Of a DNA stretch of 64,000 nt, positions 13,992 to 40,722 are shown piece by piece. Source of the DNA: Gemmatimonadota bacterium (lineage in GTDB: Bacteria; Gemmatimonadota; Gemmatimonadetes; Longimicrobiales; Gaopeijiaceae). The stretch is from NCBI GenBank assembly GCA_034521595.1, contig JAXHMG010000003.1, positions 2,720,001 to 2,784,000 of the forward strand, written 5' to 3'. How positions within the stretch are numbered: position 1 is the first letter of the stretch; every line of letters starts with the position of its first letter. The notes beneath the pieces are model-generated. The model was given only the letters and a program-made list of their open reading frames with translations, was not told the DNA's origin and made no database searches. The translations under genes and the position numbers were made by a program.

Positions 13992-13993
13992 GC

Positions 13994-14944: not shown

Positions 14945-15086
14945 GGTCGCCCTCTCCGGTATGACACTTTCGCCTCGACGGACGAAAGAGTGTAATATAA
15001 TCTAGCGGGCCCGGCCCGACGGGCAATCCCCGTACGCTCGACCGGGTACCGGACGCGCCCCGCGCGAGCGCGGGACACGAGGTCGG

Positions 15087-15386
15087 TCACAAGCCCAGGG
15101 AAGACCGTACGAGCGGGTTCATGCGCTCCGGGCTCCAGGGAGGGTCGAACGTGAGTTGGACGTCGGCGCTGTCGACACCGTCCACGCCCAGGATCGCCTC
15201 CTTGGCCTGCTCGACGATCTCGCCCGCTACCGGGCACATCGGAGACGTCAGCGACATGACGGTCTTCACGTCACCCCCGTCCACTTCGATGTCGTAGATG
15301 AGCCCCAGGACGACTAGATCGATCCCCAACTCGGGATCCTTCACGCCCTTGAGCGCTGTCTGGATATCCTTCTCTGTGACCGCCAT
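15087..15386 (-). CDS. DUF59/SufT Fe-S assembly factor
   Basis: DPELGIDLVVLGLIYDI, SLTSPMCP, FDPPWSPERM. Confidence 0.88.
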   Translation of the reverse strand: MAVTEKDIQTALKGVKDPELGIDLVVLGLIYDIEVDGGDVKTVMSLTSPMCPVAGEIVEQAKEAILGVDGVDSADVQLTFDPPWSPERMNPLVRSSLGL

Positions 15387-15477: not shown

Positions 15478-16854
15478 TCACCCCGACCGAGACGCACCAT
15501 CCGGATCGAGCGAAGCATCGAACGCCGCGGCCGCCTTGGCGATGACGTCCGAGCCCGACCGATCCTCGCCTTCCGCCGCTCCCGCACGGGTGACGAGGGT
15601 GGCCGTGATGTCGAAGACGCCTTCGACACCCGCATCGGATTCCCGCACGCGCGCGACGAGCGCATCCAGCCGCGCCCTCGCGCTCGCGAACGTGCCTCCC
15701 TCGGCGAGGAACTTGCGGCCCAGGATGACCGAATCGCTCGGTCCCTCCGCGAACGCGAGCAGGTGATCGCCCTCACCGAGGCTCAGGCGGACCGACCGGT
15801 ACTCCAGCTCGTCGTCCGAGCCGAGCGCCGGAGCGTCGGGCACCAAATCCTCGTGCGCCCCGTTCGCCCGGACGACGGTGCCCCCGACCCCTCCCGCGCT
15901 CGCCCACTCGACCCCATCCTCGGAAAGAGCGGCGAGCCCACAGCTCACCGCGCCCGATATACCTTCGACCCATCCGGCCCGGAGCCCGCGGTTCACACGG
16001 GCCAACAACGCTCCGAGATCGGGCAACGGATCCTCCGCGAAGTCCCTCAGGAGCCCTCGCACCGAGAGGAGCCGGTGGGCCGAGGACAGGCTGACCTGAT
16101 CCGCCTTGAGCACCGCCAGGGCAAGACGCCCGTCGGAGAGCAGAAACCAATCCCACGCCGCGGCACCCTCGCCGTGCTCGTGGGCGACGGTGCTGCCCGC
16201 CACGTCGAATCCCGGGAAGTTCGGCGTGCCGCGCGGAAGCAAGCGACCACGCACCATGCGGTTGTACTCCGACAGCGCCTCGCGCGGCGTTTCCCGGGGC
16301 GCATCCTTGTGGGCCAGCCGCACCGACGTGGCCCACAGCGCCTTCGAGAGATTCTTGAGGAGCCTCGCGGCGAGGGAGTCGGAATCGAGAAGCCCGAAGA
16401 AGGCATCCCGCGAGATTCCGATCAGGTAGCTCTGCTCGGGCACGTGCGCCGTCGCTGATCGGGGCGCTTCGTTGAGGAGCGCCATCTCGCCGAAGGCCTG
16501 GCCGGCACGCAACACGGCCAGACGCTCCCCGTCCTCGCCCCCCTTGGTGAGCTCGACCGACCCACGGACGACGACGTAGAAGTAATCCCCGGGCTCGCCC
16601 TCCTCGAACAACCGCGTGTCGGCTTCGAGGATCACGGGCTCGGCAATGGTCCGGAGGCGTTCGAAGTCCTCCTCGGGCAAACCATCGAAAAGCTCCACCT
16701 GCTTGAGGGCCGAGCCCACCTGGGCGCGCGTCTCCTCGACGACCAGCTCGCCGATCCTGTTGAGAGCTTCGTCGGAGATGCTCGCCAGCACGGGATTCGA
16801 GCGGAGCGATTCGAGTACGTCCGGCGGAACGGTATTGCTCGTTTCTGAGTCCAT
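15478..16854 (-). CDS. cNMP-binding domain fused to a degenerate SpoIIE/PP2C-like domain
   Basis: FEEGEPGDYFYVV.RG, GQAFGEMALL...PRSATA; C-terminal PP2C-like pattern lacking the catalytic Asp motifs. Confidence 0.8.
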   Translation of the reverse strand: MDSETSNTVPPDVLESLRSNPVLASISDEALNRIGELVVEETRAQVGSALKQVELFDGLPEEDFERLRTIAEPVILEADTRLFEEGEPGDYFYVVVRGSVELTKGGEDGERLAVLRAGQAFGEMALLNEAPRSATAHVPEQSYLIGISRDAFFGLLDSDSLAARLLKNLSKALWATSVRLAHKDAPRETPREALSEYNRMVRGRLLPRGTPNFPGFDVAGSTVAHEHGEGAAAWDWFLLSDGRLALAVLKADQVSLSSAHRLLSVRGLLRDFAEDPLPDLGALLARVNRGLRAGWVEGISGAVSCGLAALSEDGVEWASAGGVGGTVVRANGAHEDLVPDAPALGSDDELEYRSVRLSLGEGDHLLAFAEGPSDSVILGRKFLAEGGTFASARARLDALVARVRESDAGVEGVFDITATLVTRAGAAEGEDRSGSDVIAKAAAAFDASLDPDGASRSG

Positions 16855-17063
16855 GGACGGACACTCCCGCGTTCGATCGCATTCGTCAAGCTGCGCGCTC
16901 CACTCCGCCCGGAGCGGTGGCGGGCGGAACCCCGAATCCACCAGGAACCGCCGGCTGGAACCGCCGGGCGGACATGCCTCGCGAAGCGGCCGGGCACGCG
17001 TGTACATTGGGAAGCATACGCCCGGCCCCTCGAGGCTGCCACACGAATGGAGGAGCGAGCCGA

Positions 17064-17981
17064 GTGGACTCCGTTTCGTCCACACCACAGCCCACGTCCA
17101 CCGCGGGCGACAGCGCCGACACGGGCGTGACGGTGCGGTGCGCCGGCGTCCGGGGCTCGATCCCGAGTCCCGGGCCGTACACGGTGCGCTATGGGGGCAA
17201 CACGAGCTGCGTGGAGCTTTGTTCAGGCTCGACCCGACTCCTGCTCGACGCCGGATCGGGGATCCGCGCCCTGGGCCGAGAGCTGGCGAGCGGGGACGTC
17301 AAGGAGCACACGATCCTCCTGACACACTTCCACTGGGACCACATCCAGGGGTTTCCGTTCTTCGGTCCGCTGCACGATCCCGCGTGCCACCTCCGCGTGT
17401 TCGCTCCCGGGCAGCCGAAGGCCGACGTGCGACAGCTCTTCGAACGTCAGATGGATCCGGCCTTCTTCCCCGTGCCCCTCGAGGCGGCCGCCGCGCGACT
17501 GACGTTCCATGAAGCTTCGGAGGGCCCGGTCGAGGGTCTCGGGGCCGTCGTGCACGCGATGCGGGTCAGACATCCGTCGCACGTGCTGGGCTACCGCATC
17601 GAGCTCGAGGGTCGGGTGGTGTGTTACGTCCCGGACAACGAGCTGGCGAGCACCGGGTACGACCTCGGACCCCGTTGGCGCGAGGAGATGATCGAGTTCG
17701 TCGGGGACGCGGACCTGCTCATCCACGACGCCATGTACACCGAGTCCGAGTACGAGAATCGCGAGGGCTGGGGCCACTCCACCTTTCGGCAGGCGGTGCG
17801 TCTCGCGGAGGATGCCGGGGTCCGACGTCTGCTCTTCTTCCACCACGACCCCGCCCGCACCGACGAGCAGCTCGACCGGATCGTCCACACCCTACGCGAG
17901 CACGTCGCGGCCCGTGGCTCCCGTGTCGAGCTCGAAGCCGCTTCCGAGGCCTCCTCCTTCCATGTGGAGCCACGCGCATGA
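17064..17981 (+). CDS. MBL-fold metallo-hydrolase (possible cyclic-nucleotide phosphodiesterase)
   Basis: GVRGSIP, YGGNTSC, HFHWDHIQG, HDAMY, WGHS, FHHDP; GGAGGAG RBS before GTG. Confidence 0.88.
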   Translation: MDSVSSTPQPTSTAGDSADTGVTVRCAGVRGSIPSPGPYTVRYGGNTSCVELCSGSTRLLLDAGSGIRALGRELASGDVKEHTILLTHFHWDHIQGFPFFGPLHDPACHLRVFAPGQPKADVRQLFERQMDPAFFPVPLEAAAARLTFHEASEGPVEGLGAVVHAMRVRHPSHVLGYRIELEGRVVCYVPDNELASTGYDLGPRWREEMIEFVGDADLLIHDAMYTESEYENREGWGHSTFRQAVRLAEDAGVRRLLFFHHDPARTDEQLDRIVHTLREHVAARGSRVELEAASEASSFHVEPRA

Positions 17982-19885
17982 GCACCCCCACCCGCCGGAG
18001 GCGAGGACGACTCGCGATCCTCCTCGCGACGCTTCCACCCCTGCTCGCGCTCGACGCGCCGGACCGGGCGGAGCCCACCAGTTGGGCACTCGTCGTGGGC
18101 GTCACCGACTACGTCCACTTCGACGACGAGGAGGGCGGCGATCTCCCGGGCGCGGAGCAGGATGCGCGCCGGATGCGCGATGTCCTGGTCAGTCGGGGAT
18201 ACGTGCCGGAGACGAACGTCCGACTCCTCCTGAACCGGGAAGCGACCCGCGCCGGAATGGAAGAGGCGATCACGGGCTGGCTCGGAGAGCGGGCTGCTCC
18301 CGGAGACGACGTCTTCGTCTTCTTCGCGGGGCACGGATCACAGATGTGGGACGAGGACGGGGACGAGAGCGACGGCCTGGACGAGACCCTCGCTCCGGCC
18401 GACGCGCTTCCCGACCGGACCGACAACGACATTTCGGACGACGTCTTCGGCATGTGGCTGGACGGGATCCCCACCGAAAACGTGATCGTGATCCTCGACA
18501 GCTGTCACTCCGGCACCGGAACGCGGGACGTCACCCCGTTCAGCCGCGCCCGTGCGCTGGGACGTGACCTGGACGACATCCCCGAGCCGGAGGAGGGGAT
18601 GAGAACCCGCACCGCCGATGGCGGTCCCGGCGCCGAGCCGTCGGGGTTCGAGGCCGGGGAGCGGGCCGTGCTCGAGCTGGCGGCCGCGCAACCCGATCAG
18701 GCCGCGGTCGAGGTTCTCTTCCCGGAAGAGGGGGGCGCCGAGCCTTTCCAGGGCGGAGCGTTCACGACCCACCTCGTCCGTGAGCTCTGGCGCGCGTCCG
18801 AGGGGGACACGTACGAACAGGTCTTCAGGCGGACCGCCGAAGCCATGAAGAGGAACCGGTTCCAGCAAGACCCGAGGCTTTCGGAAGAGGTCGACCTCAA
18901 GAATCGGTCGATCGCCCGACTCGACGCCACCGGATCCGCCGGGCGGCCGTCGGGTCTGCCCGTGCTCCGCGTTTCGGGAACACGGGTGGAGCTGGGAGGC
19001 GGCGCGGCCCTCGGGATCCCCCCCGGCTCGACCTTCGAGACGCCTTCCGGGGGTCGCCTCACGGTCGTGTCCAGCGGGGAGCGGGAGATCACCGCGGAGA
19101 TCGCCGAAGGCCCGGTCGAGGTCGGAGACCTGGCTCGCCTGACGGCCTATCGATACCCCGACCGCCCGCTCCTCGTGAACGTCGCGGCCGTCGATACGGA
19201 GATCGCCCGATCCCTGTCGGATATGCTCGAGGGCACGACGGGCATCCGGACGGTCGAGGATCCCGACGGCTTCAGCCACCTGCTCCTGCGCCGCTCGGGG
19301 GAGGAGCTCCGTGTCCTCGGGATCGACGGCTTCGTACGCCACGACGGTCTGAGCGCGGCCCCCGACGCGCTGGGGGCGGTGGCCGCCATCTTGCGGACGG
19401 AAGCCGCCTCGAAGCGGCTCGGTGATATGGAGAATCCCGCGCAACCCTTCGACGTACGGCTCGCGATGTCCGACGGCCGGTTCGCGTTCGGGCTCGGGGA
19501 AGAGATCCGGTTCCGCCTTCGGTCGGAGCGGGACGGGTATCTCACCCTCGTCGACCTCGGCACGGACGGTACCGTTGCGATGCTCTTTCCGAACGGAGAA
19601 ACGCCGAGCGTGAGGGTGCGGGCCGGGGAAGAGATCGTGTACCCAGCCGGCGCCGACGTGTACTTCGAGGCGCTGCCTCCGGCCGGCAGCGGTCTGGTGC
19701 GCGCCTTCGTGACGGACCGGCCGCTCGACATCCCGATACCGGACGGCGAAACCTACGCCTATGGAGACGAAGAGTTCGCCGCCACGGTCGTGGAGGCGCT
19801 CCTCGACGCCGTCGGGTCCAGCCACGGTGGCGTCACGCTCGATTCCTGGGGCACCGCGTCGCTCACGTACCGGATCCGTCCGTGA
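17978..19885 (+). CDS. Exported metacaspase (peptidase C14) with C-terminal DUF4384-like domain
   Basis: Basic-hydrophobic N-terminus; ALVVGV.DY, FAGHGSQ, DETL.PAD, LDSCHSG; C-terminal GEEIRF..RSERDGYL.L.D.G.DG....LFPN. Confidence 0.88.
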   Translation: MSTPTRRRRGRLAILLATLPPLLALDAPDRAEPTSWALVVGVTDYVHFDDEEGGDLPGAEQDARRMRDVLVSRGYVPETNVRLLLNREATRAGMEEAITGWLGERAAPGDDVFVFFAGHGSQMWDEDGDESDGLDETLAPADALPDRTDNDISDDVFGMWLDGIPTENVIVILDSCHSGTGTRDVTPFSRARALGRDLDDIPEPEEGMRTRTADGGPGAEPSGFEAGERAVLELAAAQPDQAAVEVLFPEEGGAEPFQGGAFTTHLVRELWRASEGDTYEQVFRRTAEAMKRNRFQQDPRLSEEVDLKNRSIARLDATGSAGRPSGLPVLRVSGTRVELGGGAALGIPPGSTFETPSGGRLTVVSSGEREITAEIAEGPVEVGDLARLTAYRYPDRPLLVNVAAVDTEIARSLSDMLEGTTGIRTVEDPDGFSHLLLRRSGEELRVLGIDGFVRHDGLSAAPDALGAVAAILRTEAASKRLGDMENPAQPFDVRLAMSDGRFAFGLGEEIRFRLRSERDGYLTLVDLGTDGTVAMLFPNGETPSVRVRAGEEIVYPAGADVYFEALPPAGSGLVRAFVTDRPLDIPIPDGETYAYGDEEFAATVVEALLDAVGSSHGGVTLDSWGTASLTYRIRP

Positions 19886-19939
19886 TGCGAACCTACGTGA
19901 TCCGACCGACCCCGTGACGCCCTCGCCGTTTCGCCCGAA

Positions 19940-22192
19940 GTGAGTCGCGCGAGGAAGTTGCGGCGACTCGCCGCGTTCCTGGCCATCGTGCTCGGCGCGT
20001 CGTCGCTCGCGCTCGTTCTCGACGCGATGGGGGAGCTCACGGGCCTCCGCGCGTTCGAGGATCTCACGCTCGATCTGCGGCAGCGCACGACGGCGGAGTC
20101 ACTCCTGCCGGGCCCCTCGGAGCGTTCGACCGACGTGGTCCTGGTTCTCTTCGACGAGCATTCCGTGCTCGACCCGGATTTCGGGTGGCCCTGGCTCTCG
20201 CCGTTCCCCAGAAGCGTGCTCGCCGACCTGGTGGACGCGCTTTCGGAGGCCGGCGCCCGCACGATCGGCTTGGACGTCTACCTCGACCGCCTCTTCCCCG
20301 GTCTCGACACCATCGACGGGGGCAACGACCGCCTGCACGCGGCGATGGAGCGGGCCGGCAACGTGGTCCTAGCCGCACCGCTCCAACGGACGGACTCGGG
20401 ACCGACCGTCGCTCCACCCCACCCGATGTTCGCCACCGCGGCCACCGACGTGGGCGCCGCCGACCTCCCGGCCGCCTTCGAGACCTTCCGGGATGGGGCT
20501 CTGGCGGTACGCTCCGGCAACGGTCTGGAGCCTTCGTTCTCCCTGGCGCTCTACGCTCACGCTCGGGGCCTGGACACCGACTCGCTGCTCGCGGCGGCGG
20601 AGCGCTCGGGCCGGCTCGACCTCCCCGGCCTCCCCGAGAACGTGGGGCACGTGCCGAGCGGCTGGTTCCGGGACGACGGCGCGGGAGCGGGGTCCATCGT
20701 GCCGTTCCGGGTCCGGTACACCGGCCCTCCCTCGAGCGCGGACGCGGAGGACCCACCGGGCACGTTTCCCACGTACGCGTCCGGAACGCTCCCCGTGACG
20801 GCCTCGTTCGCACCCGAGATGTTTCGCGACAAGATCGTTCTTCTCGGAACGGGCTTTCACGACGAAGACAAGTTCCGGACGCCGTTCTACGGCGCTTCAC
20901 CTCCCGACGATGTCGAAGGCCCGGACGGCCGGGAACCGTACACGTGGATGTTCGGTGTCGAGCTCCACGCCAACGCGCTCCAGAACATGCTCGACGAACG
21001 CTACGTCGAGCCACTGGGCTCGACCGCCTCGGCCCTGCTGCTGCTTCTCGTGGCGTTCGTGCCGGCCGCCGTGACGTTCCGGTCCGGGGCAGCGTGGAGC
21101 GGAGTGGTGACCGCGGGCGTCATTCTCGGCGTCGTGGCCGGCGCCTGGTGGGCCTGGGCCGGAGCCGTGTATGTGCCCGGCTTCGAGGTCACGGGCCTCG
21201 GCACCGCTTTTCTCTGGGTTCCCGTCGCGGCCCCGATGGCTTCCGGCCTGCTCTCCTATGTCGGATCCGTGGGATACGTAGCCATCGTGGAAGGGCGGGA
21301 AAAGCGATTCATCAAGAACGCATTCGGGAAATATCTCTCGCCCGACGTCGTTGCCGAGATCGCTGACGACCCCGAATCGCTCTCGCTCGGCGGGCAGAGT
21401 CGTCCACTCTCGTTGCTCTTCTCCGACCTGTCCGGCTTTACCTCGCTTTCGGAGCAGCTGTCACCCGAAGAGCTCGTCGCCCTGCTGAACGAGTACCTCG
21501 ACGACATGACCCGAGTCGTGCTGTCCGAGCGCGGATATCTGGACAAATACATCGGGGACGCGATCATGGCGTTCTGGAACGCCCCGCGCGCGCTCGACGA
21601 TCATCCGGACCGGGCGCTCCGGGCGGCGGTTCGAATGCAACGAAGCCTCGATCGGCTCAACGCGCGGTGGAGTCGAGACCACGACCGCCCCGACCTTCGG
21701 GCGCGGATCGGCGTGCACACGGGGCCCGCCGTCGTGGGGAACGTCGGGGGCCGCGACCGTTTCGACTATTCGGCCATCGGGGACGCGGTGAACCTCGCCG
21801 CGCGCCTCGAGCCGGCCAACGACACCTACGGCACGCGCATCATCACCTCACGGGAGACATTGGACGAGGCGGACGCCACCCGCTTCCGGATCCGCGAGCT
21901 CGACCTCGTGGCGGTGAAGGGGAGAGACCAACCGGTCTCGATTCACGAGGTCGTGGAGCTCCGCGAAGCCGAGCTTCCCCCCGGGCTCGCACGTGCGCTC
22001 GAGCGATACGACCAGGGCTTGGCCGCCTACCGGGCAAGGGATTGGAACCGGGCGAAGACGCACTTCGTATCCGCACTCGACGCCCGGCCGGAAGACGGCC
22101 CGAGCCGACTGTACGTCGCCCGCTGCGACGCGCACATCACCGACCCACCCGCTCCCGATTGGGATTTCGTGGTGCAACGGAGCTCGAAGTAA
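19940..22192 (+). CDS. CHASE2-domain class III adenylate cyclase with C-terminal TPR-like tail
   Basis: TM, PFPRS..ADLV..L...GA..IGLD, FRTP, GVELHAN, 3 TMs, FSDLSGFT, DKYIGDAIM, DYSAIGDAVNLAARLE. Confidence 0.92.
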   Translation: MSRARKLRRLAAFLAIVLGASSLALVLDAMGELTGLRAFEDLTLDLRQRTTAESLLPGPSERSTDVVLVLFDEHSVLDPDFGWPWLSPFPRSVLADLVDALSEAGARTIGLDVYLDRLFPGLDTIDGGNDRLHAAMERAGNVVLAAPLQRTDSGPTVAPPHPMFATAATDVGAADLPAAFETFRDGALAVRSGNGLEPSFSLALYAHARGLDTDSLLAAAERSGRLDLPGLPENVGHVPSGWFRDDGAGAGSIVPFRVRYTGPPSSADAEDPPGTFPTYASGTLPVTASFAPEMFRDKIVLLGTGFHDEDKFRTPFYGASPPDDVEGPDGREPYTWMFGVELHANALQNMLDERYVEPLGSTASALLLLLVAFVPAAVTFRSGAAWSGVVTAGVILGVVAGAWWAWAGAVYVPGFEVTGLGTAFLWVPVAAPMASGLLSYVGSVGYVAIVEGREKRFIKNAFGKYLSPDVVAEIADDPESLSLGGQSRPLSLLFSDLSGFTSLSEQLSPEELVALLNEYLDDMTRVVLSERGYLDKYIGDAIMAFWNAPRALDDHPDRALRAAVRMQRSLDRLNARWSRDHDRPDLRARIGVHTGPAVVGNVGGRDRFDYSAIGDAVNLAARLEPANDTYGTRIITSRETLDEADATRFRIRELDLVAVKGRDQPVSIHEVVELREAELPPGLARALERYDQGLAAYRARDWNRAKTHFVSALDARPEDGPSRLYVARCDAHITDPPAPDWDFVVQRSSK

Positions 22193-22229
22193 GAGATTGG
22201 AAGAGTTTTCGCCGTTCCGGGAGACGCAA

Positions 22230-23213
22230 ATGCAGCATCCAAAGAGACCAACCTCCGCAGGAGGCGGCGGCCACGCCGCACGACGAGGGCGGATCCTGGC
22301 ATGGGTCACGCTGGCCGCGGCCTTCACCGGAGCCGCGACGGACACATCCGCCCAGGAGGAGGCGGTCGCGCTCGTCGTGCGTGTTCAGGGCGCGGTTCAG
22401 GTCGAGCGTGGGGATGACTCGGGGCCGGCAGCGGTCGGGCTGCGCCTCATCGAAGGCGACGAGCTGCGACCCGAAGACGGAGGGCGCGCGATCCTCGTCA
22501 CACCGTCGGGCGCCCAACAGGTGGTGACCGAGGCGACGACCGTGCGTGCTCCGGCCGTCACCGAGCCCACGGACCTCTTCACTCGCGCGGTCGCGACGCT
22601 CGCGCAGGCCGCGAGCGTGGACGCCACACTCGGTGGTCGGCAGGGCATGATCCGCCCCATTCCCGGACGAACGTCGCTCGTCGCGCCACGAAACGATCTG
22701 CTCGTGTCATCCACGCGACCCACCTTCCGATGGACCGCCACGCCCGACGCTCGCTACGACCTCATGTTGCGACGAGCCGACGGTGGCCGGCCCGAAATCT
22801 TCGAAGTCGGGACGGATACCGTGTGGAGCCTCCCGAGGGAGCTGGACGCGCTACGGGAGGGAGACACGTACGCGTGGACGGTGTTCGTCGGGGGACGGGA
22901 CGGCGGTCGGCCACTGCCGCAGCAGGAGTTCCGGGTCCTCGATGCCGAGCGACGTGGGGAGCTCGAGTCCCGGCTCGACGCGGTACGTGCGCTCGATCTG
23001 GATCCGACGGCAGAAGGGTTGGCGCTGAGCGCCATCATCTACCACGACTTCGAGCTCTTCTACGACGCCACTGCCGCGCTGCGGGAGCTGCGGGAAGCCG
23101 GAGCCCCCCTCAGCCCGAACCTCCACCGGCTGGAAGGCGAAGCGTGGGCTGAGCTCGGGGACGCGGAAGCCGCCCGTGCCGCGTTCGATCGGGCGACGGG
23201 AGGAGCACATTGA
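22230..23213 (+). CDS. Exported protein with FecR-like N-terminus and DUF928-like C-terminus
   Basis: Signal peptide; V.RVQG.V....G..L..GD.L; RPTFRW, L..GDTY.W.V, F.VL, AIIY...ELFYDA; TPR-like end. Confidence 0.7.
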   Translation: MQHPKRPTSAGGGGHAARRGRILAWVTLAAAFTGAATDTSAQEEAVALVVRVQGAVQVERGDDSGPAAVGLRLIEGDELRPEDGGRAILVTPSGAQQVVTEATTVRAPAVTEPTDLFTRAVATLAQAASVDATLGGRQGMIRPIPGRTSLVAPRNDLLVSSTRPTFRWTATPDARYDLMLRRADGGRPEIFEVGTDTVWSLPRELDALREGDTYAWTVFVGGRDGGRPLPQQEFRVLDAERRGELESRLDAVRALDLDPTAEGLALSAIIYHDFELFYDATAALRELREAGAPLSPNLHRLEGEAWAELGDAEAARAAFDRATGGAH

Positions 23214-24904
23214 CCCCGGACGCATCCCCCAGCGACGACCTCCGCACCGCGCTCGACGAAACCCGCGAGGATCTGGCTCGCACCCGAGCCGAGCTGGACC
23301 GGGCCCACACGGAGCTTCGGGAGCTCCATCGCATCGGCGCGGCGCTCATGAGCGAACGAAACCCGTCGCGGCTCATGGACTCGATTCTCTCGCAAGCACG
23401 GGCGCTCACCACGTCCGACGCGGGAAGCCTGTACCTGGTCGAAGAGGACGAAGAAGGAAACAGCCTGCTGCACTTCCTGGGTTCGCAGAACGACACGCTT
23501 CCGGACCTGCCGCCGGTCGACTTCACGCTTCCCATCGACGAAGGCTCCATCGCCGGGTACGCGGCCACGACGGGTGAGCCGTTGGTGCTCGATGACGTCT
23601 ACGATCTTCCGGACGACCTACCGTTTTCGTTCAACAAGACGGTGTACGACGAGAAATACGGGTACCGTGCGAAGTCGATGCTCGTCGTGCCGATGCTCGA
23701 CCACCGGGACCACGTGGTCGGGGTTTTGCAGCTCATCAATCGCAAGCGCGAGCCCACCGCGACCGTGCGGTCCGAGGCGGAGGCCGAGCGGTGGGTCCTC
23801 CCGTACACCGAGCGCGAGGTGACGTTGGTTTCTTCGCTGGCCGGCCAGGCCGCGGTCTCCATCGAGAACGGCCGCCTCTACCGGGACATCGAGAACCTCT
23901 TCGCCGGGTTCATCAAGGCAGCGGTGACGGCCATCGACCGCCGTGATCCGACCACGGCCGGTCATTCGGTTCGGGTGACCGAGCTCACCTGCGCGATGGC
24001 CGAGCTCATGAACGAGCAGGACGAGGGCCCGTTCTCGGACGTCGCATTCGACGAGGAAGAGTTGAAGCAGCTCCGCTATGCGGGTCTTCTACACGATTTC
24101 GGGAAAGTCGCGGTCCGCGAGGAGACGCTGGTCAAGGCGAACAAGCTCCCCCCGGTGCTCCAATCGCGGGTGGAAGCACGGTTCGCGTTGATCCGTCGTA
24201 CGTTGGAGCGAGTGGCGGCCGATGACCGGGCGGCCGTGCTCGCGCGCGCCGCGGAAGCCGGCGACCGACGGACGCCGACCGCCCGCGACCACACCGCCGC
24301 CGAGCTGGCCACGATCGACGAGCGGCTGGAGCGGGAGCTCGCCGAACTCGACCGCTACTGGACCGCGATCCGCGAAGCGAACGTTCCCCGCGTGCTCGAA
24401 GAAGGCGCCGCGGAGATCCTGGAGGAGATCGCCGGCAAGACGTTCGAGGATGCCGACGGGGAGGAGCACCCCTACCTCACGCCGGAAGAGCTCCACTACC
24501 TGTCCATCCGCCGTGGCAACCTCGACGAACGGGAGCGCGCCCAGATCGAGTCCCACGTGCTCCACTCCTACGACTTCCTGCTCGACATTCCGTGGACGGA
24601 GGATCTTTCCCGGATCGCCGAGATCGTGCGCGGCCACCACGAAAAGCTGGACGGAACCGGATACCCCGACGGCGTCACGGCGGAGCACCTCGCCCTCGAA
24701 ACCCGCATCATGACCGTTTGCGACATCTTCGACGCGCTCACGGCGTCCGACCGACCCTACAAGAAGGCGGTTCCGGTCGAGAAGGCGCTCGACATCCTGC
24801 GCGCCGAAGCCGCAGAAGGGGCCCTCGCTCCGGACATCGTCGAGCTGTTCATCGAGAGCGGGGTGTACCGGAAGGTGCTGGAAACGGATTGGCGGGAGCT
24901 GTAA
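23210..24904 (+). CDS. GAF + HD-GYP phosphodiesterase
   Basis: GSIAGY, KSMLVVPM..H...VVGVLQLIN; LLHDFGK, HHEKLDGTGYP, DIFDALT..DRPYK. Confidence 0.92.
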   Translation: MTPDASPSDDLRTALDETREDLARTRAELDRAHTELRELHRIGAALMSERNPSRLMDSILSQARALTTSDAGSLYLVEEDEEGNSLLHFLGSQNDTLPDLPPVDFTLPIDEGSIAGYAATTGEPLVLDDVYDLPDDLPFSFNKTVYDEKYGYRAKSMLVVPMLDHRDHVVGVLQLINRKREPTATVRSEAEAERWVLPYTEREVTLVSSLAGQAAVSIENGRLYRDIENLFAGFIKAAVTAIDRRDPTTAGHSVRVTELTCAMAELMNEQDEGPFSDVAFDEEELKQLRYAGLLHDFGKVAVREETLVKANKLPPVLQSRVEARFALIRRTLERVAADDRAAVLARAAEAGDRRTPTARDHTAAELATIDERLERELAELDRYWTAIREANVPRVLEEGAAEILEEIAGKTFEDADGEEHPYLTPEELHYLSIRRGNLDERERAQIESHVLHSYDFLLDIPWTEDLSRIAEIVRGHHEKLDGTGYPDGVTAEHLALETRIMTVCDIFDALTASDRPYKKAVPVEKALDILRAEAAEGALAPDIVELFIESGVYRKVLETDWREL

Positions 24905-26234: not shown

Positions 26235-26455
26235 CGGCGAACTCCGGGGGTTGGACTCTCGTGGGCCGCGAAGGTACGCCGGGGAGAATCGGACCCACAA
26301 GGTCGCCCCGACGGCCACCACGCTGCATGACTCGATATCCCGCTGCGGGAATTGCCGAACCGTCTCGGGGGCCGTAGCCTACCGGAGCGGTGCACCCGCG
26401 GGAGCGTTGCCGGAAGCGCTCCCACGATCCACGCGGCAGAGGGAGAGAACAGCGC

Positions 26456-33929: not shown

Positions 33930-35426
33930 CTACGTACCCGGTGAGGGCGTCTTGGACGCCTCGGTCGCTTCGCGCGCCACCGCCTCCACCAGGTCGCTGA
34001 AGATGAGCGCGTGCATCGGGTAGAGCCCGTACCAGTACAGCCATCCCGTGAAGCCGGTCGGGGCGAAATACGCGGTCTGGACGAGCTCCGTGCTCCCCTC
34101 CCCGGGGATGGCTTCGAACTGAAGCCAGGCGCGTCCGGGCACCTTCATCTCCGCCCTGAGACGCAGGAGGGTATAGGGCTTCCACTCCTCCACACGCCAG
34201 AAATCGACGGCTTCTCCCGGATAGAGGTCCACGGGGTGCCGTCGCCCCCGCCGTAACCCCGGGCCACCCACGAGCTGATCCAGCAAGCCCCGAAGCTCCC
34301 ACGCCCATCGCCACACCAGCCATCCGCGCGAGCCCCCCAGACTCGAGAAGGTCCGGAAGACGTCCTCCTGAGAGGCCTCGACCCTGCGCGTGCGGACCTC
34401 GCGGATCACACCTTCACGGTCCTCGAGCCGGACCCCGGGCGTCATGTCCCCCCCGCTCACCGTCCACCTCGTCGCCACCTCTCCCGTTCGCGTACGCTCG
34501 AGCGCCCTCGTCACGGCTTCCTCGTAGGACATCGGCACGATGTCCGGGAAAAGCTCACGTGCTCGCGTGGTGCTCCCGACCACCGGATAGACGATGCCCT
34601 CGATCAGGGGCACAGCCAGGGCATTCGGGATCGGCGTGACGAGCCCCACCCACAAAGCCGCGAGCCTCGGCGCCAGGACCGGCACGGGCACGATCAGGCG
34701 CGGCAGGCCCCGGACGTGCGCGTACCCCTCCATCATCGCCTTGAAGCTCAGGGGATCCGTGCCGATGTCGATGGCCCCGAGCGCATCCTCGCGACCCACC
34801 GCCGCGACCAGGTACGAAAGGGCGTCCCGAATCGCGATCGGACGGACGTCGTTCTGAATCCAGCGCGGAGCGACCATCGCCGGGAGGCGCTCGGTGAGGT
34901 AGCGCACCATCTCGAACGAAGCCGACCCCCCTCCGATGACGGGCCCCGCGCGGAACTCGGTCGTCGGGAGTCCCTCCCGGAGGATGCGGCCGATCTCGCC
35001 CCTGCTTCCCAGGTGCGCGGAGGTGGTCTCTCCCGGGCCCCGCTCCGGCAGTATTCCGCCGAGATAGATCACCTGCCGCAGCCCGCCTCCGGCTTCGACG
35101 AAGTTGTGGGCCGCACGCCGGTCCCGATCCTCGAAGTCCTCGCCGGACGCCATGGAGTGGACGAGGTAATAGGCGACGTCCACACCGGCGAGCGCCGAAC
35201 GCAGCGACTCGGGCTCGAGGAGGTCCCCCTGGACGATCTCGACCGACTCGGCCCATGGGCGGGCTTCGGCGCGCCGAGGATCGCGGGCCATCACGCGCAC
35301 GTCGTAACCGGCCGCGAGAAGACGCTCGACGAGCCGTCCGCCGATATATCCGGTCGCTCCCGTGACGAGTACCTTCAGAGCACGCTCACCGACCGGTGCC
35401 TCCGACCACGGCCAGGGGCACGTCAC
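33930..35426 (-). CDS. Atypical SDR (YbjT-like) with DUF2867 domain
   Basis: VTGATGYIGGRL, YYLVHSM, GSASFEM, G...DFWRVE, LRAEMKVPG.AWL; start uncertain (possibly near 35378). Confidence 0.88.
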   Translation of the reverse strand: MTCPWPWSEAPVGERALKVLVTGATGYIGGRLVERLLAAGYDVRVMARDPRRAEARPWAESVEIVQGDLLEPESLRSALAGVDVAYYLVHSMASGEDFEDRDRRAAHNFVEAGGGLRQVIYLGGILPERGPGETTSAHLGSRGEIGRILREGLPTTEFRAGPVIGGGSASFEMVRYLTERLPAMVAPRWIQNDVRPIAIRDALSYLVAAVGREDALGAIDIGTDPLSFKAMMEGYAHVRGLPRLIVPVPVLAPRLAALWVGLVTPIPNALAVPLIEGIVYPVVGSTTRARELFPDIVPMSYEEAVTRALERTRTGEVATRWTVSGGDMTPGVRLEDREGVIREVRTRRVEASQEDVFRTFSSLGGSRGWLVWRWAWELRGLLDQLVGGPGLRRGRRHPVDLYPGEAVDFWRVEEWKPYTLLRLRAEMKVPGRAWLQFEAIPGEGSTELVQTAYFAPTGFTGWLYWYGLYPMHALIFSDLVEAVAREATEASKTPSPGT

Positions 35427-37170
35427 CGAGCCCGCTTCTCTGCGGATTCTGCCGACCCCGGGTCTCGGAGCGGACGTTTCGCTCGACGTGGTCGAACGCC
35501 TCGACGAACGTCACGATGCCGTCTCCGTTTCGGTCACCCGAGCCTCGCAACCCGTCCAGAAGGAAGTGGGTGAACACACCGTGTCCGCCCCAGCGTGCAT
35601 CCTCGAGGCTGAGCTCGTTGGTGTCGGCCGCGGTCATCATCAGACGCCGCGACGGAGTGAACAATCCCTGGAAGCTCCCGGCGATGGCGTTCCCCTGAGC
35701 CCCTCCGAGCGCGTCCCCGTCGGCCGTGCCCGCGGAATGGCACGCATCGGCGATCACGATCACCCGCTCGGCGGCGATGTGCCTGCGCAAGGCGGTCTTC
35801 ACGTCCCACATCGGAAAGCCGCTCGCGGCCAGCGCATCCAGGTCGGCGTCGCTCGGCAGGAGGTAGAGGTTGTCGGGCCGTCCGGGGTCGGGCGCGCCGT
35901 GGCCGGCGAAGTATATGACCACCAGGTCGTCGAAATCGGCCTGTTGGAGGAAGACGAAAAGCGCCTCACGCATGGCCGCTCCGGTCGCCTCTTCGTCTTC
36001 GAGATACAGCACCTCGTCGAACGGCCCCGCGGCGTCGCTCTCGAGGAACTCGCGCATCGCCCGGGCATCGGCCGGTGCGTACGGAAGGTCGGGGATGTCC
36101 GACGCGCCGTAGTCCCCCACGCCGATGACCACGGCCCAGCGCTTGTCGATGCGGGGCGCGGCGAGCGTCGAAGTCGTCGCTCCGCCGGAGCTCCGCGCCA
36201 CGATCGAGACCGTGTCACGGCTGATGGGAAGGGTGAGCTCCCGGGCGAACCGGCGGCTGTCCGTGCCCTCGAGGCCCATGCGAGATGCTTCGTCACTCCC
36301 GAGGGGCTCGATCAGGGCGGGTTGACCGTCGACCTCGACGGTCGCCGCGTCACCGACCACCACGCCCTCCAGCCGTACCAGGTTCCGGACGTCGGAGCGC
36401 TCCCGATCACCACGCTTCACCACGCCAATGCCACGGCTCACGGCACCGTCGGCGGGCAGCACATCGGCTCGCGTCACCGCCAACCCGGGCGCTCCGGACT
36501 CGGATGCCGTCCGCACTCCCGACTCGATCGATCCCGGGTCAGGAGCCCAGTACGCCTCTTCCTGCCACGCGCGCGCTTCCCAATCGTTCACGATGGGCCC
36601 GACGAAGCGCGTGATCGCGTCCTGCGTGGCCTCGCGCACGGCGAGTGCGCGGGCGGCCTGATCCGTCGCCTCCAGGGCCCGCGCGTCCGCCACCGCGTCC
36701 GCCACGACTTCCCCACGGTCGAGCCGCAGGGCCCGGACCGAGACCTCCGTGGTGGCCGTGACCAACGTCCCGCTCACGGGATCCGGGCGGGTAGCATGAT
36801 CGGCCACCCCCAGGACCAGGAGCTGCGCGCCCCAATCCCGTCCGAGCCGGGTGGCGGCTCCATCGTCCCCCGCCGTCGCCCGGGCCACCAGCTCCCGCGA
36901 CGCTTCGTCGATCGCGAGCGCGGGGTCGATCACCGGGAAGCCCGCTTCCCTGAGGAAGGCCGTCATCTCGCGCGAGGCGACTTTCCCGCGCCCTTCCTCC
37001 TCGATGAAGACCAGCGTCCGCGGAAGCTCCCCTTCGAACGCGATCTCCTGAGCTCCGGCCCCTGCCGGGTCGTAGCCCGTGGCCACCAAGAGCGCCACGA
37101 CGGCGCCGGCGACCACGCGGTGCGCCGGTGTCCGAGCCGCTCCCACGACATGCTTGATCGAGCGTCTCAT
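35386..37170 (-). CDS. Exported caspase-family (C14) protease with N-terminal CsgG/TolB_N-like and Ig-like domains
   Basis: Signal peptide ending AGA-Q; WAVVIGVGDY, YFAGHG, IADACHS, HGVFT.FLL.GL.G..D.NGDG.VT. Confidence 0.87.
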   Translation of the reverse strand: MRRSIKHVVGAARTPAHRVVAGAVVALLVATGYDPAGAGAQEIAFEGELPRTLVFIEEEGRGKVASREMTAFLREAGFPVIDPALAIDEASRELVARATAGDDGAATRLGRDWGAQLLVLGVADHATRPDPVSGTLVTATTEVSVRALRLDRGEVVADAVADARALEATDQAARALAVREATQDAITRFVGPIVNDWEARAWQEEAYWAPDPGSIESGVRTASESGAPGLAVTRADVLPADGAVSRGIGVVKRGDRERSDVRNLVRLEGVVVGDAATVEVDGQPALIEPLGSDEASRMGLEGTDSRRFARELTLPISRDTVSIVARSSGGATTSTLAAPRIDKRWAVVIGVGDYGASDIPDLPYAPADARAMREFLESDAAGPFDEVLYLEDEEATGAAMREALFVFLQQADFDDLVVIYFAGHGAPDPGRPDNLYLLPSDADLDALAASGFPMWDVKTALRRHIAAERVIVIADACHSAGTADGDALGGAQGNAIAGSFQGLFTPSRRLMMTAADTNELSLEDARWGGHGVFTHFLLDGLRGSGDRNGDGIVTFVEAFDHVERNVRSETRGRQNPQRSGLGDVPLAVVGGTGR

Positions 37171-37880
37171 CGGGCGCCTCCTCCCAGTCGTTCGAGCGCC
37201 TTCCGCGCACCGGGATGGCGCGGATGGATCTCGAGCGCCGCTTCGTAGTGTTCGATGGCTCGCTCCACGTCGCCGCGATCTTCGAAGTCCACCGCGCGGC
37301 TGAACTCGATCGTCGCCGCGACCGGAATCGGCTCGATCTCGGGGCGACTCGACGCCGGCACGAGGTCGAGCTCCGAGCCGAACTCGTCCGCCATCTCGAC
37401 GACCACGCCGAGAAGTGCTTCGGTGCGGTCATTCTTCTTCATGACGGCCACGATCTCGGACGTCTCCACGTCCACCGCCCGGATGTCCATGCGAAGGTCC
37501 TCGACGACGCTGCTCACCTGCCCGTGCAACACGTACCGGACACCCAGCAACTGGCCGATCTCGATCGCGCTGGACTCGTCCAGCCGTCCGGAAAGCGCCA
37601 GATCCTGCTCGCGGAGCATGTCGCGGATCTCGGCCCGCTCCACCACCTGGATGCCTTCGCGCCCGCTGAATTCGGTCACGAGCATCGCGGTGACGGCTTT
37701 TCCGAGATTCACTTGAGCCTCCGCGCCGGCCCCCATCATGAAGCCCGTGAAATCCATGACCGCCACCGTCGGAACATCGTCCTGCGCCTCGACCGCCGAA
37801 GCGGTGGAGCCGTAGGAGGCTCCCGCCAAGGCGAGGGCTGCGAGAAGCATCGGCATACGCGTCGTGAGCGGTGCGGGCAT
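37167..37880 (-). CDS. CsgG/HfaB (TolB_N-fold) protein with C-terminal TPR
   Basis: Signal peptide; TVAVMDF, VVER.EI...L.EQ.L, AIEIGQLLG..Y, RAVDVETSEI; TPR at end. Confidence 0.82.
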   Translation of the reverse strand: MPAPLTTRMPMLLAALALAGASYGSTASAVEAQDDVPTVAVMDFTGFMMGAGAEAQVNLGKAVTAMLVTEFSGREGIQVVERAEIRDMLREQDLALSGRLDESSAIEIGQLLGVRYVLHGQVSSVVEDLRMDIRAVDVETSEIVAVMKKNDRTEALLGVVVEMADEFGSELDLVPASSRPEIEPIPVAATIEFSRAVDFEDRGDVERAIEHYEAALEIHPRHPGARKALERLGGGAR

Positions 37881-38095: not shown

Positions 38096-39571
38096 ATGCG
38101 CCACGACCCGGGCCCACGCCGAACAGCACGCGGCGCGGCCATTTCCCCGCACCGACACCGGCGAAGCGGCCGGCAACGTTTTTGGGCGACGGCGATCCTC
38201 CTCGCCGCGACGGCCTGTGCGAGCGGCGTGCCGGACGTCGGTCCGGCCGACGTGCCGCGGTTGGCCGAGGAAGCCTCCGAGCGCCCGGACGATCTCGAGA
38301 CGCGGACCAGGCTCGGCATCGCCCAGTACCGGGCGGGTAACGTCGACGCGGCGCTCGAGAACCTCCGGCGGGCGGTGGAAGACGGGCACGAAACAGGCCC
38401 CGCGCTCCTCCATCTCGGGCTCGCGCACGAAAGCCGCGAGGAGTGGGCCGAGGCGCGTGAAGCGTACGGGCGCTATCTCGACCGTGACGCCTCCGGAACC
38501 CTACGCTCCGACATCGAAAACCGCCTTCAGCTCATGGGGCGGAACCTGCTCCGCGAGCGGGCCCGGGAGGCGCTGGAGCTCGAGCGCCGGGTCGCCGACA
38601 GGGTGGAGCCGACTCCGCGATCGGTGGCGGTCCTTCCCTTCGGCTTCAACTCCGAGCGCGCCGATATCGAGCCGTTGATCTACGCTCTAGCGGACATGAT
38701 GAGCACCGACTTCGCCGTGTCCGACGCGCTCGTGGTGCTCGAGCGCGCCCAGGTTCAATCGTTGCTGGACGAGATGGCGTTGACGGAAGCAGGATATGCG
38801 GAAGAAGAAACCGGTGCCCGGGCCGGTCGCCTTCTGCGCGCCGAGCACGTGGTCCAGGGCGTCATCACCACGCTCGGCGGGGACCGGCTGCGCACGGACG
38901 CGAATGTCGTCAACGTGGCCTCGGGCTCCGAGGCCGGCGACCTGAACGAGACCGCGGCGCTCGAACAGCTCTTCGCCATGGAAAAGGCGCTCGTCATCCG
39001 CACCATTCGCGAGGTGCTCGGCGTCGAGCTCACGCCCGCCGAGGAGCAGGCGATCCTCGACAACCGCATGGACAACGTCCTCGCGTTCGTGGCGTACGGT
39101 GAAGGGTTGAGGGCGTTGGACCGCGGGAACTACGCGGACGCCGAAGAGCGTTTCCAGGCCGCGATCTCGCTCGAAGGAGGCAGCAACGACATGCTCGAAT
39201 CCGCCCTCGAAACGACCTCCGGCCTGAGCGAGGCCGAGGACACTGACACCGAGACGCTCGCGAGCCGAGCCCGAGCCCCCGGCGCCGTGGGCGGCGGACC
39301 GCTCGCCCCCCCTGCCGGATCGACGACCGGCGCCGAGGAGACGGGCGGAGATCTCTCGCAGGGCACCCTCACCAACGTGACCGAAGGCGTCGCCCCGACC
39401 CCGACATCGGGCCTGCTCGACCTCGGCTCCACCGATCAGGCGTACGAGCAGCCCAAGCAAACGGGAGATACCGAGCGTCAGCCGGTCGAAGAGGCGTCCG
39501 GCGAGAGCGGCATCGTCGGCTCCTCGGGCACGATCCGCCTGGTGATCCCGCGCCCCGGGGGCGAGCGTTGA
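38096..39571 (+). CDS. TPR + CsgG-like lipoprotein
   Basis: Lipobox ATAC; N-terminal TPRs; SVAVLPF, VLER..VQ.LLDE..L, ARAGRLL.A..VV.G; low-complexity tail. Confidence 0.8.
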   Translation: MRHDPGPRRTARGAAISPHRHRRSGRQRFWATAILLAATACASGVPDVGPADVPRLAEEASERPDDLETRTRLGIAQYRAGNVDAALENLRRAVEDGHETGPALLHLGLAHESREEWAEAREAYGRYLDRDASGTLRSDIENRLQLMGRNLLRERAREALELERRVADRVEPTPRSVAVLPFGFNSERADIEPLIYALADMMSTDFAVSDALVVLERAQVQSLLDEMALTEAGYAEEETGARAGRLLRAEHVVQGVITTLGGDRLRTDANVVNVASGSEAGDLNETAALEQLFAMEKALVIRTIREVLGVELTPAEEQAILDNRMDNVLAFVAYGEGLRALDRGNYADAEERFQAAISLEGGSNDMLESALETTSGLSEAEDTDTETLASRARAPGAVGGGPLAPPAGSTTGAEETGGDLSQGTLTNVTEGVAPTPTSGLLDLGSTDQAYEQPKQTGDTERQPVEEASGESGIVGSSGTIRLVIPRPGGER

Positions 39572-40722
39572 TCCGGGCTGCCGCGCGTGGGCCCCGAAGG
39601 GTCGGGGCGCTTCTCGTGACGCTCCTCGTGGTCGGCGCGCCCGAAGCGCACGGCCAGATCACGGTCGGCACGGGTCCGGAATTCAAGGGCTACGGATTCG
39701 ATCCCGGATTGGGCGCGGATGCCGCGGAGCTGTTCGTGCTCCCCGTCGCGGTGCGCGTCCCCGTGAGCGATCGCTTCGGCATCGACGTCTTCAGCGCGTG
39801 GGCCCGGGGACGCGTCGAGGTCGACGACACCAACCTGGAGCTCTCGGGGCCCGTGGACACGCGAATTCGCATGAGCGCCGAGGCCGCGCCGTGGGCGCGG
39901 GTGACGGTAGGCGCGCAGCTCCCCACCGGCCACGCATCGCACGACTCCGAGGAGGCGGTCGTCGCTTCGGTGCTCGCGACCGACCTCCTCGGCTTCCGGG
40001 AAAGCAACTGGGGCTCGGGCACGGCTCTCACCACCTCGGTCGCCACCGCCACCCGCGCAGGATCGTGGGGCATCGGCGCCGCGGCGGCGTACGCCCTGCG
40101 CGGCTCGTTCCGTCCGAGCGCGGACGTCGACTCCGTCCGCTACACGCCGGGGAACGAGTCCCGAGTGCGGGTGGGGCTCGACCGCAATTTCGGGAACAAC
40201 ACCCTGACGCTCGGGGGCACGTTCATCACCTACGCGGAGGACCAGGCGAACGGACGCAACCTCTTTCGCTCGGGCGACCGCTTCCGCTTCGACGCCAGCT
40301 ACCAGTTTCGAGCCTCGGCCGGGCTCTGGACGCTGTATGCAGCCGACGTGATACGATCCAATGGAGACCTGACGCTCCGGCTCGCCGGCGGATCCGGCGG
40401 GGCGGCCGGGGACACGACGGTAGCCACGGCCGACCAGAACATGCTGGTGGCTGGTCTGGTGGGCGCGATCGGTTTAGGCTCAGGGTTCGTGTTTCGCCCC
40501 CACCTCGATCTCAAGCTCCAGGCGAGAACCGAGCCCGACGGATCCGACGCCGGATCCGGTTGGATGCTCGCGGCCGGTGGGGACATTCCGGTTCGGCTGT
40601 TCGGTCGGTCGGAGCTCTTCCCCCGTGCGCAGGTGCTCGTGGGCTCGATCCGCGACCGGCAGGGCGAATCGGTCCCGCTGCTCGGCTTGGAGCTCAAAGG
40701 CACGCTCCGCTGGTCACCTTGA
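39568..40722 (+). CDS. Putative outer-membrane beta-barrel
   Basis: Signal peptide, alternating amphipathic strands, aromatic near the C-terminus; 4-nt overlap with upstream gene. Confidence 0.68.
   Translation: MIRAAARGPRRVGALLVTLLVVGAPEAHGQITVGTGPEFKGYGFDPGLGADAAELFVLPVAVRVPVSDRFGIDVFSAWARGRVEVDDTNLELSGPVDTRIRMSAEAAPWARVTVGAQLPTGHASHDSEEAVVASVLATDLLGFRESNWGSGTALTTSVATATRAGSWGIGAAAAYALRGSFRPSADVDSVRYTPGNESRVRVGLDRNFGNNTLTLGGTFITYAEDQANGRNLFRSGDRFRFDASYQFRASAGLWTLYAADVIRSNGDLTLRLAGGSGGAAGDTTVATADQNMLVAGLVGAIGLGSGFVFRPHLDLKLQARTEPDGSDAGSGWMLAAGGDIPVRLFGRSELFPRAQVLVGSIRDRQGESVPLLGLELKGTLRWSP

Follow-up and report, generated by a model that had tools for sequence, protein, structure and literature searches.

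CHASE2 adenylate cyclases are encoded in several described gene clusters, for which the cited papers are used here as far as their text was available to us. In magnetotactic bacteria mtxA (MtxA, MGR_0208, PDB 4Z29) is followed by a CHASE2 adenylate cyclase gene (PMC4439547, PMC5088516). A four-gene cluster of the Campylobacterota encodes a CHASE2 cyclase, a cyclic AMP (cAMP) phosphodiesterase (PDE), a FecR-domain envelope protein and a TPR protein, proposed to act in one pathway (PMC9239204). In rhizobia a CHASE2 cyclase answers a protein signal through an outer membrane barrel, and the barrel NsrA is needed (PMC13001267). Here we describe a locus in a 64,000-nucleotide stretch of a Gemmatimonadota bacterium (order Longimicrobiales, family Gaopeijiaceae; assembly GCA_034521595.1, contig JAXHMG010000003.1, positions 2,720,001 to 2,784,000), hereafter the window, in which a CHASE2 cyclase gene and a gene for an MtxA-like protein lie together with genes for two exported metacaspase-type proteases. 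The genes of this locus very probably form one functional unit. They comprise a block of six and, 10 kb downstream, four further genes spanning 35386-40722 (window coordinates; counts refer to 68 related loci described below):

15478..16854, minus strand: protein with a cyclic-nucleotide-binding (cNMP-binding) domain and a degenerate SpoIIE/PP2C-like domain, divergent from the next five genes (Pfam cNMP_binding, E 1.7e-20; SpoIIE, E 1.7e-9)
17064..17981, plus strand: predicted cytoplasmic hydrolase with a metallo-β-lactamase (MBL) fold, of the type of RNase Z and the atypical class II PDEs (Lactamase_B_2, PF12706, E 1.9e-22)
17978..19885, plus strand: caspase 1, metacaspase-type protease with C-terminal DUF4384 (Peptidase_C14, PF00656, E 3e-23; PF14326, E 2e-14)
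19940..22192, plus strand: membrane CHASE2 class III adenylate cyclase with a helical C-terminal tail (PF05226, E 2e-28; Guanylate_cyc, PF00211, E 2e-22)
22230..23213, plus strand: exported MtxA-like protein, the partner (structure model and profile; in Pfam only a weak TPR match, E 0.005)
23210..24904, plus strand: predicted cytoplasmic GAF-HD-GYP phosphodiesterase with a helical insertion (GAF, E 3e-16; HD_5, E 5e-32)
35386..37170, minus strand: caspase 2, exported, with an N-terminal CsgG/LpoB-like region (a lead only), an RG motif and a C-terminal C14 domain (PF00656, E 6e-21)
37167..37880, minus strand: exported CsgG-like and TPR protein (PF03783, E 7e-14), ATGA overlap with caspase 2; in 20 of the 68 loci
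38096..39571, plus strand: TPR and CsgG-like protein, probable lipoprotein (TPR_16, E 1e-9; CsgG, E 4e-7); in 14 of the 68 loci
39568..40722, plus strand: exported protein, probably an outer membrane β-barrel, TTGA overlap with the preceding TPR gene; in 14 of the 68 loci

A check of the open reading frames (ORFs) of the window found all six of the first block intact at these positions. The MBL and caspase 1 genes share an ATGA at 17978-17981, the partner and HD-GYP genes share a TTGA of 4 nucleotides at 23210-23213, and the remaining gaps are 54 and 37 nucleotides. The MBL gene has a GTG start after GGAGGAG; the start of the cNMP gene, ATG 16854, was placed from homologues. A sigma-70 scan of the divergent gap gave 0 sites against 0 expected. 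ORFs, overlaps and Pfam domains thus agree with the layout in the original prediction, made from the DNA of the window alone, of five tightly spaced co-oriented genes and a divergent cNMP gene. Its six-gene system is indeed one conserved locus, but the list was too short, as the second caspase module belongs to it too; the cNMP-binding domain was correctly recognized, but the C-terminal SpoIIE/PP2C-like domain had been left unnamed.

Because the partner is MtxA-like and is encoded beside a CHASE2 cyclase, the core of the locus is a variant of two clusters already in the literature, mtx and that of the Campylobacterota. Like the mtx cluster, it pairs a CHASE2 adenylate cyclase with an exported protein made of an N-domain, a linker (protease-sensitive in MtxA), an Ig domain and TPRs, but the gene order is reversed, with the cyclase first in the window. 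The mtx cluster has a Sel1-repeat gene (PMC5088516), whereas the ten genes of the locus have no Sel1 match in Pfam and include TPR proteins instead. The available text on the mtx cluster does not mention two C14 proteases, an MBL hydrolase, a GAF-HD-GYP protein, a cNMP-binding pseudophosphatase, CsgG-TPR proteins or a barrel. The mtx hosts are magnetotactic; the Gemmatimonadota host is not known to be, no search for magnetosome genes having been made. With the Campylobacterota cluster the locus shares the CHASE2 cyclase, and its MBL hydrolase and TPR proteins may correspond to the PDE and the TPR protein of that cluster; no protease, HD-GYP protein or cNMP reader is described in the part of that paper available, and the Gemmatimonadota partner lacks a Pfam FecR match. 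The circuit of Sinorhizobium meliloti (CyaD1/CyaD2/CyaK, NsrA and Clr) likewise has CHASE2 cyclases, an outer membrane barrel, an encoded reader, and FecR and TPR proteins (PMC13001267, PMC5498481), but its reader is a CRP-family regulator rather than a cNMP-binding pseudophosphatase, and the accessible text reports no caspases. In cyanobacteria caspase-fold domains, CHASE2 and DUF928 co-occur in CHASE2-DUF928 neighbourhoods and caspase-CHASE2 fusions (PMC5587647, PMC3501461, PMC8195603); the caspase of the fusion in PMC3501461 is predicted to be cytoplasmic, whereas in Gemmatimonadota both caspases are exported proteins in their own right and a cyclase provides the output. The two exported metacaspases, the CsgG-TPR/barrel block, the GAF-HD-GYP protein and the pseudophosphatase reader are additions to this known chassis. 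The original prediction knew of no characterised system with the full composition. A literature search, to which subscription papers or supplements could add a description of the neighbourhood, found no paper linking caspases to a CHASE2-cyclase locus; the core of cyclase, partner and PDE was already published (PMC4439547, PMC9239204).

Close relatives of the partner gene are present in 68 loci, all titled Gemmatimonadota and many of them from Longimicrobiales. These loci were chosen by a pattern in the linker of the partner gene; they are related by descent and possibly overlap with the other sets of loci, and only loci with enough flank entered each presence count. In nearly every locus the genes follow one another as MBL, caspase, CHASE2 cyclase, partner and HD-GYP: 62/63 loci have the cyclase, 57/59 caspase 1, 51/53 the MBL gene, 60/62 the HD-GYP gene and 37/49 the cNMP gene. 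The exceptions are an orphan partner copy (L058; L and G numbers denote loci and genomes), a locus with its upstream half deleted (L038), one without HD-GYP downstream (L087) and one with an inverted MBL/HD-GYP pair (L088). Twelve of 40 relatives have the partner gene, in loci where the gene order is retained. The synteny in related genomes to which the original prediction had looked is therefore present.

A further check used one draw of 251 genomes of the order, searched with four proteins. Thirty-five genomes carry the locus-type CHASE2 sensor, and of these 34 also have the partner, 32 caspase 1 and 33 caspase 2; among the 216 genomes without this sensor the partner occurs in 7, caspase 1 in 1 and caspase 2 in 5. 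Caspase 1 was counted at E≤1e-80 (G299 has one at 37% identity, a 33rd; G301 and G369 are fragmented), and the caspase 2 count keeps 38 of 54 matching genomes, the 16 dropped being matched in the catalytic half only. This clustering is far beyond chance. The pairwise identities of three core proteins correlate at 0.86-0.92; neither this correlation, which shared descent alone would give, nor a Fisher test was accepted as evidence of co-evolution, because the genomes are kin and not independent. In G376 the partner is lost and the cyclase is split over several frames. A decaying copy is found at L106:7391-11091, where the cyclase extends over several frames, the partner and HD-GYP genes are missing and caspase 2 overlaps the cyclase remnant. 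Five genomes (L096, L097, L098, L099, L100), in which a CHASE2 cyclase of the locus type was not found, have a diverged orphan MtxA-like gene of 27-33% identity, in two cases beside paa genes; these orphans are possibly relics of a lost locus.

The second-caspase block lies directly after the HD-GYP gene in many relatives and is present in 21 of the 47 loci with more than 4 kb of downstream sequence. In genomes with both the caspase 2 block and the partner gene, the two lie at most 30 kb apart on the same contig in 23 of 34 and on different contigs in the other 11. The start codon of the TPR-CsgG gene is uncertain, the ORF opening at 37910; its product has a lipobox-like Cys after a hydrophobic stretch. 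The product of 39568..40722 matched no Pfam or NCBIfam family, and its Atlas neighbours (0.97-0.98) are mostly unnamed, one set having PF13557 on 11% of its members. Atlas matches of caspase 2 (0.78-0.82) are leads only.

The envelope genes and the cyclase can be separated. At L095 the genes for the partner, the CsgG-TPR protein, caspase 2, caspase 1, the TPR-CsgG protein and the barrel form one co-directional run without a cyclase, and a cyclase of the locus type was not found in that 91% complete genome; this arrangement ties the MtxA-like protein to the caspases independently of the cyclase. At L007 the cyclase, MBL and HD-GYP genes are missing together, and no copies of them were found in the rest of that genome (95% complete, 250 contigs), which retains the caspases, partner and cNMP gene. 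These two loci indicate that a genome can retain the envelope module in the absence of the cyclase. Its genes persist in further genomes where the locus-type cyclase was not found (G016, G414, G452, G341 and G289). A search for the MBL gene in five cyclase-less genomes is weak, with no positive control among the five. G410 has a second copy of the module. No clear case of a locus-type cyclase without a caspase was seen among the genomes and loci examined.

The partner had been labelled FecR/DUF928-like in the original prediction, and both memberships were dropped. FecR (PF04773) matches neither the partner, whose N-domain has a small β fold like 5ix9, nor any of 20 homologues, and DUF928 (PF06051) does not match the partner and finds 3/20 homologues below the cut-off (E 0.004-0.09, 13-17 bits vs 26). 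The best identification is an MtxA-like protein, proposed from distant homology only. The structure model (predicted local distance difference test, pLDDT, 83.4) has a small N-terminal β domain, a linker, an Fn3/Ig domain and TPR-like helices. Its Ig and TPR part (residues 149-326) matches MtxA 4z29 in Foldseek with E 5e-6, a TM-score of 0.64 by target and a root-mean-square deviation (rmsd) of 4.3; VIA gives Z 9.3 over 161 aligned residues and rmsd 3.4, a level that many unrelated Fn3 domains reach for the Ig domain alone. Identity in the structure alignments with MtxA is 11-14%. For the N-domain the match is 5ix9, in which it resembles an anchoring domain of adhesins (Z 10.0, 70 aligned, rmsd 1.8), and the partner profile finds the MtxA sequence over 25-190 with E 0.0023. 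The N-terminus is hydrophobic in 62/63 partner homologues.

The linker (131-140) has low confidence in the model (pLDDT 55), and an Arg-bearing stretch extends over R137-P143. Among 37 profile-found partner homologues of 270-380 amino acids, drawn from the 150 matches listed, R142 is kept in 36 and R137 in 30. An Arg lies at a like place in the linkers of distant partners, followed there by Gly or Thr, and in MtxA. That RQGMIRP is invariant across the 68 loci was not counted as evidence, the scan pattern having selected for it. The linker of MtxA is cut by trypsin in vitro, leaving a stable C-terminal fragment (PMC4439547). When the CHASE2 domain (30-372) and the mature MtxA-like protein (42-327) were predicted as a complex, the score was 0.00 twice; controls were not folded, so that this is evidence neither way.

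Both proteases and the cyclase have intact active sites. In caspase 1, H119, C176, D62 and D174 are invariant in 52/52 homologues, and the best fold matches of its model (pLDDT 85.7) are metacaspases; an alignment to Yca1 was also used. The acidic residues presumably form the S1 pocket of metacaspase-type C14 proteases and, with the metacaspase fold, would imply Arg/Lys specificity and perhaps Ca2+ dependence; the circuit proposed below assumes this specificity for both caspases. In caspase 2, H424, C477, R246 and G247 are invariant in 20/20. The cyclase has D496, K536, D540, N618 and R622 in 56/56 homologues, and position 611 is Ser in 45 and Thr in 11. We take these residues to be the two metal-binding Asp, the Asn/Arg pair, and Lys536 with Ser/Thr611 for adenine. 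Lys536 and Ser/Thr611 point to ATP as the substrate, as originally predicted, but the base-specifying residue in DYSAIG is Ser611 and not the Asp named there. Hydrophobic segments of the cyclase lie at about 7-32 and 358-413. Export was called by a hydrophobicity window, which does not tell membrane anchors and cleaved signals apart. There is a hydrophobic stretch ahead of the first domain in 53/53 caspase 1, 19/20 caspase 2, 18/18 CsgG-TPR, 11/13 TPR-CsgG and 12/13 barrel proteins, and in 0/51 MBL, 0/62 HD-GYP and 2/35 cNMP proteins. These counts favour the exported caspase 1 of the original prediction over a cytoplasmic location.

The remaining proteins of the first block would remove or read cyclic nucleotides. 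The MBL hydrolase keeps THxHxDH and further His and Asp residues in 51/51 homologues. It has the PF12706 fold and the [T/S]HxHxDH motif of the atypical class II PDEs (CpdA of Corynebacterium, YhfI and Rv1339; PMC9293780). The NCBIfam cyclic-nucleotide PDE model scores below its cut-off (43.5 vs 400 bits), and RNase Z models score higher, also below cut-off. The motif is common to RNase Z and so not diagnostic; the protein is a plausible candidate cAMP phosphodiesterase, its substrate suggested by the gene context. In the GAF-HD-GYP protein the HD and HHExxDGxGYP metal and GYP residues and RPYK (RxxK/R) are conserved in 56 homologues, the best structure match is PmGH (4mcw, E 4e-29), and the GAF domain best matches the cNMP-binding GAF domains of CyaB2 (1ykd, E 6e-15) and PDE5. 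These features make it more likely a cyclic di-GMP (c-di-GMP) PDE than a cAMP eraser. Of the two cAMP erasers originally predicted, the MBL hydrolase thus stays plausible and the HD-GYP protein probably is not one. PmGH and Tlr0485 have the same architecture, to which the locus protein adds an insertion of about 120 residues in the HD-GYP domain; c-di-GMP hydrolysis by Tlr0485 depends on the binding of cAMP by its GAF domain (bioRxiv 10.1101/2021.11.05.467447), and the locus protein is possibly regulated by cAMP in the same way. The genome of the window (G000) has 7 GGDEF matches. The HD-GYP proteins of L004, L006, L009, L010 and L011 have an extra N-terminal region of about 120-150 residues without counterpart in the window copy.

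The cNMP protein has an intact binding cassette, with FGEMxL and PRSA nearly invariant in 37 homologues. In the alignment of these homologues, the columns where we would expect the metal-binding Asp residues of PP2C vary freely. These patterns suggest that it is a probable cAMP-gated pseudophosphatase. It is the only cNMP_binding match in G000 (93% complete) and in G003, and four other relatives have 4 to 6; no CRP-like or other cNMP-binding transcription factor was found in the G000 or G003 assemblies. The only other class III cyclase match in G000 is fused to DUF5939 (L113:9767-11641, contig C3 of G000 at about 71.8-73.6 kb) and lies beside a multicopper oxidase gene.

CHASE2 matches in a sample of the phylum were found in 15/221 genomes at 17 places; 16 were examined, one below the cut-off being left out. 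Eleven of the 16 are cyclases, and an exported protease is encoded near 8 of these 11, small numbers all. The proteases are C14 peptidases in the window, L011, L023 and L020, a TPR-CHAT protein in L021, and M48 peptidases in L013, L015 and L017; the three cyclases without a visible protease (L014, L016, L019) are close to the ends of their contigs. A TPR-caspase and a distant partner are encoded at L022, where the output part of the CHASE2 protein is cut off. No protease was found among the scanned subset of ORFs neighbouring the non-cyclase CHASE2 genes (a kinase in L018, an HD-GYP protein in L024 and a TIR protein in L025). A second subfamily of CHASE2 cyclases, of 31-43% identity (L013:10606-13875, L015:10963-12542, L016:10769-12870, L017:6559-7440), is encoded next to a hypothetical secreted protein and an M48 peptidase that is exported and has an intact HExxH, and in two loci next to an MscS-cNMP channel; it makes up a parallel module in which both the protease and the reader are different ones. 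L025:8810-10708 is a CHASE2-TIR fusion. At L018:8195-11992 a CHASE2 histidine kinase occurs with a gene for a true FecR domain and a response regulator, beside a trimeric autotransporter.

The reading we favour, at somewhat less than an even chance, is a cAMP circuit of Gemmatimonadota, chiefly of Longimicrobiales, that spans the envelope and in which proteases gate the cyclase of an mtx-type pair. Gene content, synteny, co-occurrence, intact active sites, hydrophobicity-based export signals and the MtxA-like fold, from which this reading starts, were seen directly. The barrel, the TPR-CsgG lipoprotein and the CsgG-TPR protein would pick up a cue from outside or from the envelope and would recruit or cluster caspase 2. 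Caspase 2, caspase 1 or both would undergo self-maturation and cleave either the MtxA-like protein, at its Arg-bearing linker, or a ligand carried by it, and the processed MtxA-like protein would change the state of the CHASE2 domain. The cyclase, whose catalytic residues are present, would then make cAMP, the MBL hydrolase would remove it and the cNMP pseudophosphatase would read it; the GAF-HD-GYP protein would read it through its GAF domain and lower c-di-GMP. The Arg kept in the flexible linker, the trypsin cut in the linker of MtxA, the various proteases near other CHASE2 cyclases of the phylum and the rhizobial protein signal that acts through a barrel speak for the circuit. Cleavage by proteases upstream of the cyclase is its uncertain step. 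A stronger version is rather doubtful: CHASE2 cyclases of this kind would be receptors for periplasmic proteolysis, with a two-caspase cascade, triggered through the barrel and CsgG-TPR proteins, cutting the MtxA-like protein as a zymogen ligand, a fragment of which would switch the cyclase; depending on the lineage, the protease slot would be filled by C14, CHAT or M48 enzymes, and cAMP would act through a pseudophosphatase reader and a c-di-GMP-lowering GAF-HD-GYP protein, without CRP.

Several observations weigh against the favoured circuit. Pro directly follows R142 in 36/37 homologues, and Pro after the cut-site residue usually blocks cleavage; R137 is less conserved, and the conserved Arg may be a binding residue. 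The survival of the envelope module without a cyclase also fits a role of its own, and the counts, coming from kin genomes, do not represent independent events. No protease is listed for the mtx or the Campylobacterota cluster in the text available, and the cyclase and its partner may therefore work without one; a strain deleted for mtxA had no phenotype in standard conditions (PMC4439547). The FecR and TPR neighbours of rhizobia, which the original prediction had taken for working partners of the cyclases, are reported to be cAMP-induced outputs that are dispensable for signal perception (PMC5498481). That report, as these neighbours are targets of cAMP and Clr, favours the same unit running in the reverse direction, with the caspases, CsgG-TPR proteins and barrel as a cAMP-switched output for processing envelope or surface proteins (adhesin release, export, envelope repair or defence). 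So do the envelope module without a cyclase in 5/216 genomes, its second copy in G410 and the resemblance of the MtxA-like N-domain to an adhesin anchoring domain. We nevertheless consider such an output unlikely: with one cNMP match each in G000 and G003, and no cNMP-binding transcription factor, a CRP-like induction route is missing there, and different protease families beside different CHASE2 cyclases are easier to understand as a shared sensing logic.

A relay without cleavage of the partner, in which the MtxA-like protein is a scaffold binding CHASE2 and the caspases, and proteolysis is self-maturation or trimming of an outside ligand, appears fairly improbable. It accounts for the Pro after R142 and for the invariant TR (R183) of caspase 1 and RG (R246) of caspase 2, which look like self-processing sites of the kind that orthocaspases have; the linker, however, is flexible, and its Arg is conserved across distant partners, some with Gly or Thr next. 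MtxA itself was proposed to be a periplasmic interaction protein (PMC4439547). That the six genes alone matter, with both PDEs erasing cAMP, is very improbable. The joint absence of the HD-GYP, MBL and cyclase genes from L007 would fit it, but the HD-GYP protein is PmGH-like with intact cyclic-dinucleotide motifs in a genome with 7 GGDEF matches, and caspase 2 co-occurs as tightly as caspase 1. Hitchhiking of unrelated genes in an inherited block is scarcely credible. All the loci are from one phylum and the core protein identities correlate at the level given above, as hitchhiking would have it; against it stand the overlapping stop and start codons, the patchy joint presence (35/251 genomes), the re-association in rearranged orders (L088, L095, L107) and the analogous proteases of other lineages.

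In the window, the phenylacetate catabolism genes for PaaA/PaaC and FeS_assembly_P (PaaD-like; 12476-15386, minus strand) flank the locus in many relatives and were regarded as inherited neighbours. A gene for a HupE/UreJ-2 protein (24849-26321, minus strand), found in 22/68 loci, is convergent on the HD-GYP gene with a short overlap, and is the first of the genes that separate the six-gene block from the second-caspase block. At 9249-12214 an exported subtilase gene (minus strand) is divergent from one for an AraC-type regulator, beside an outer membrane barrel gene (8566-9252); the G+C fraction is lower at 9249-12214 (0.635-0.64 vs about 0.68).

What CHASE2 domains sense is largely open, and MtxA has a structure without a function (PMC4439547); in rhizobia the signal is a protein, and how it reaches the cyclase is understood only in part (PMC13001267). 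Compact enough to be reconstituted, the locus supplies a named candidate for the ligand, possible cut sites and catalytic mutants. If the favoured circuit is correct, caspase-fold proteases would signal outside the cytoplasm and not in cell death, and cAMP would be linked to c-di-GMP in a genome where no CRP-like protein was found; the stronger version would in addition be a bacterial extracytoplasmic caspase signalling cascade and would give a function to MtxA. The conservation of these genes in one group of largely uncultivated bacteria suggests that proteolysis outside the cell may switch this poorly understood type of CHASE2 sensor.

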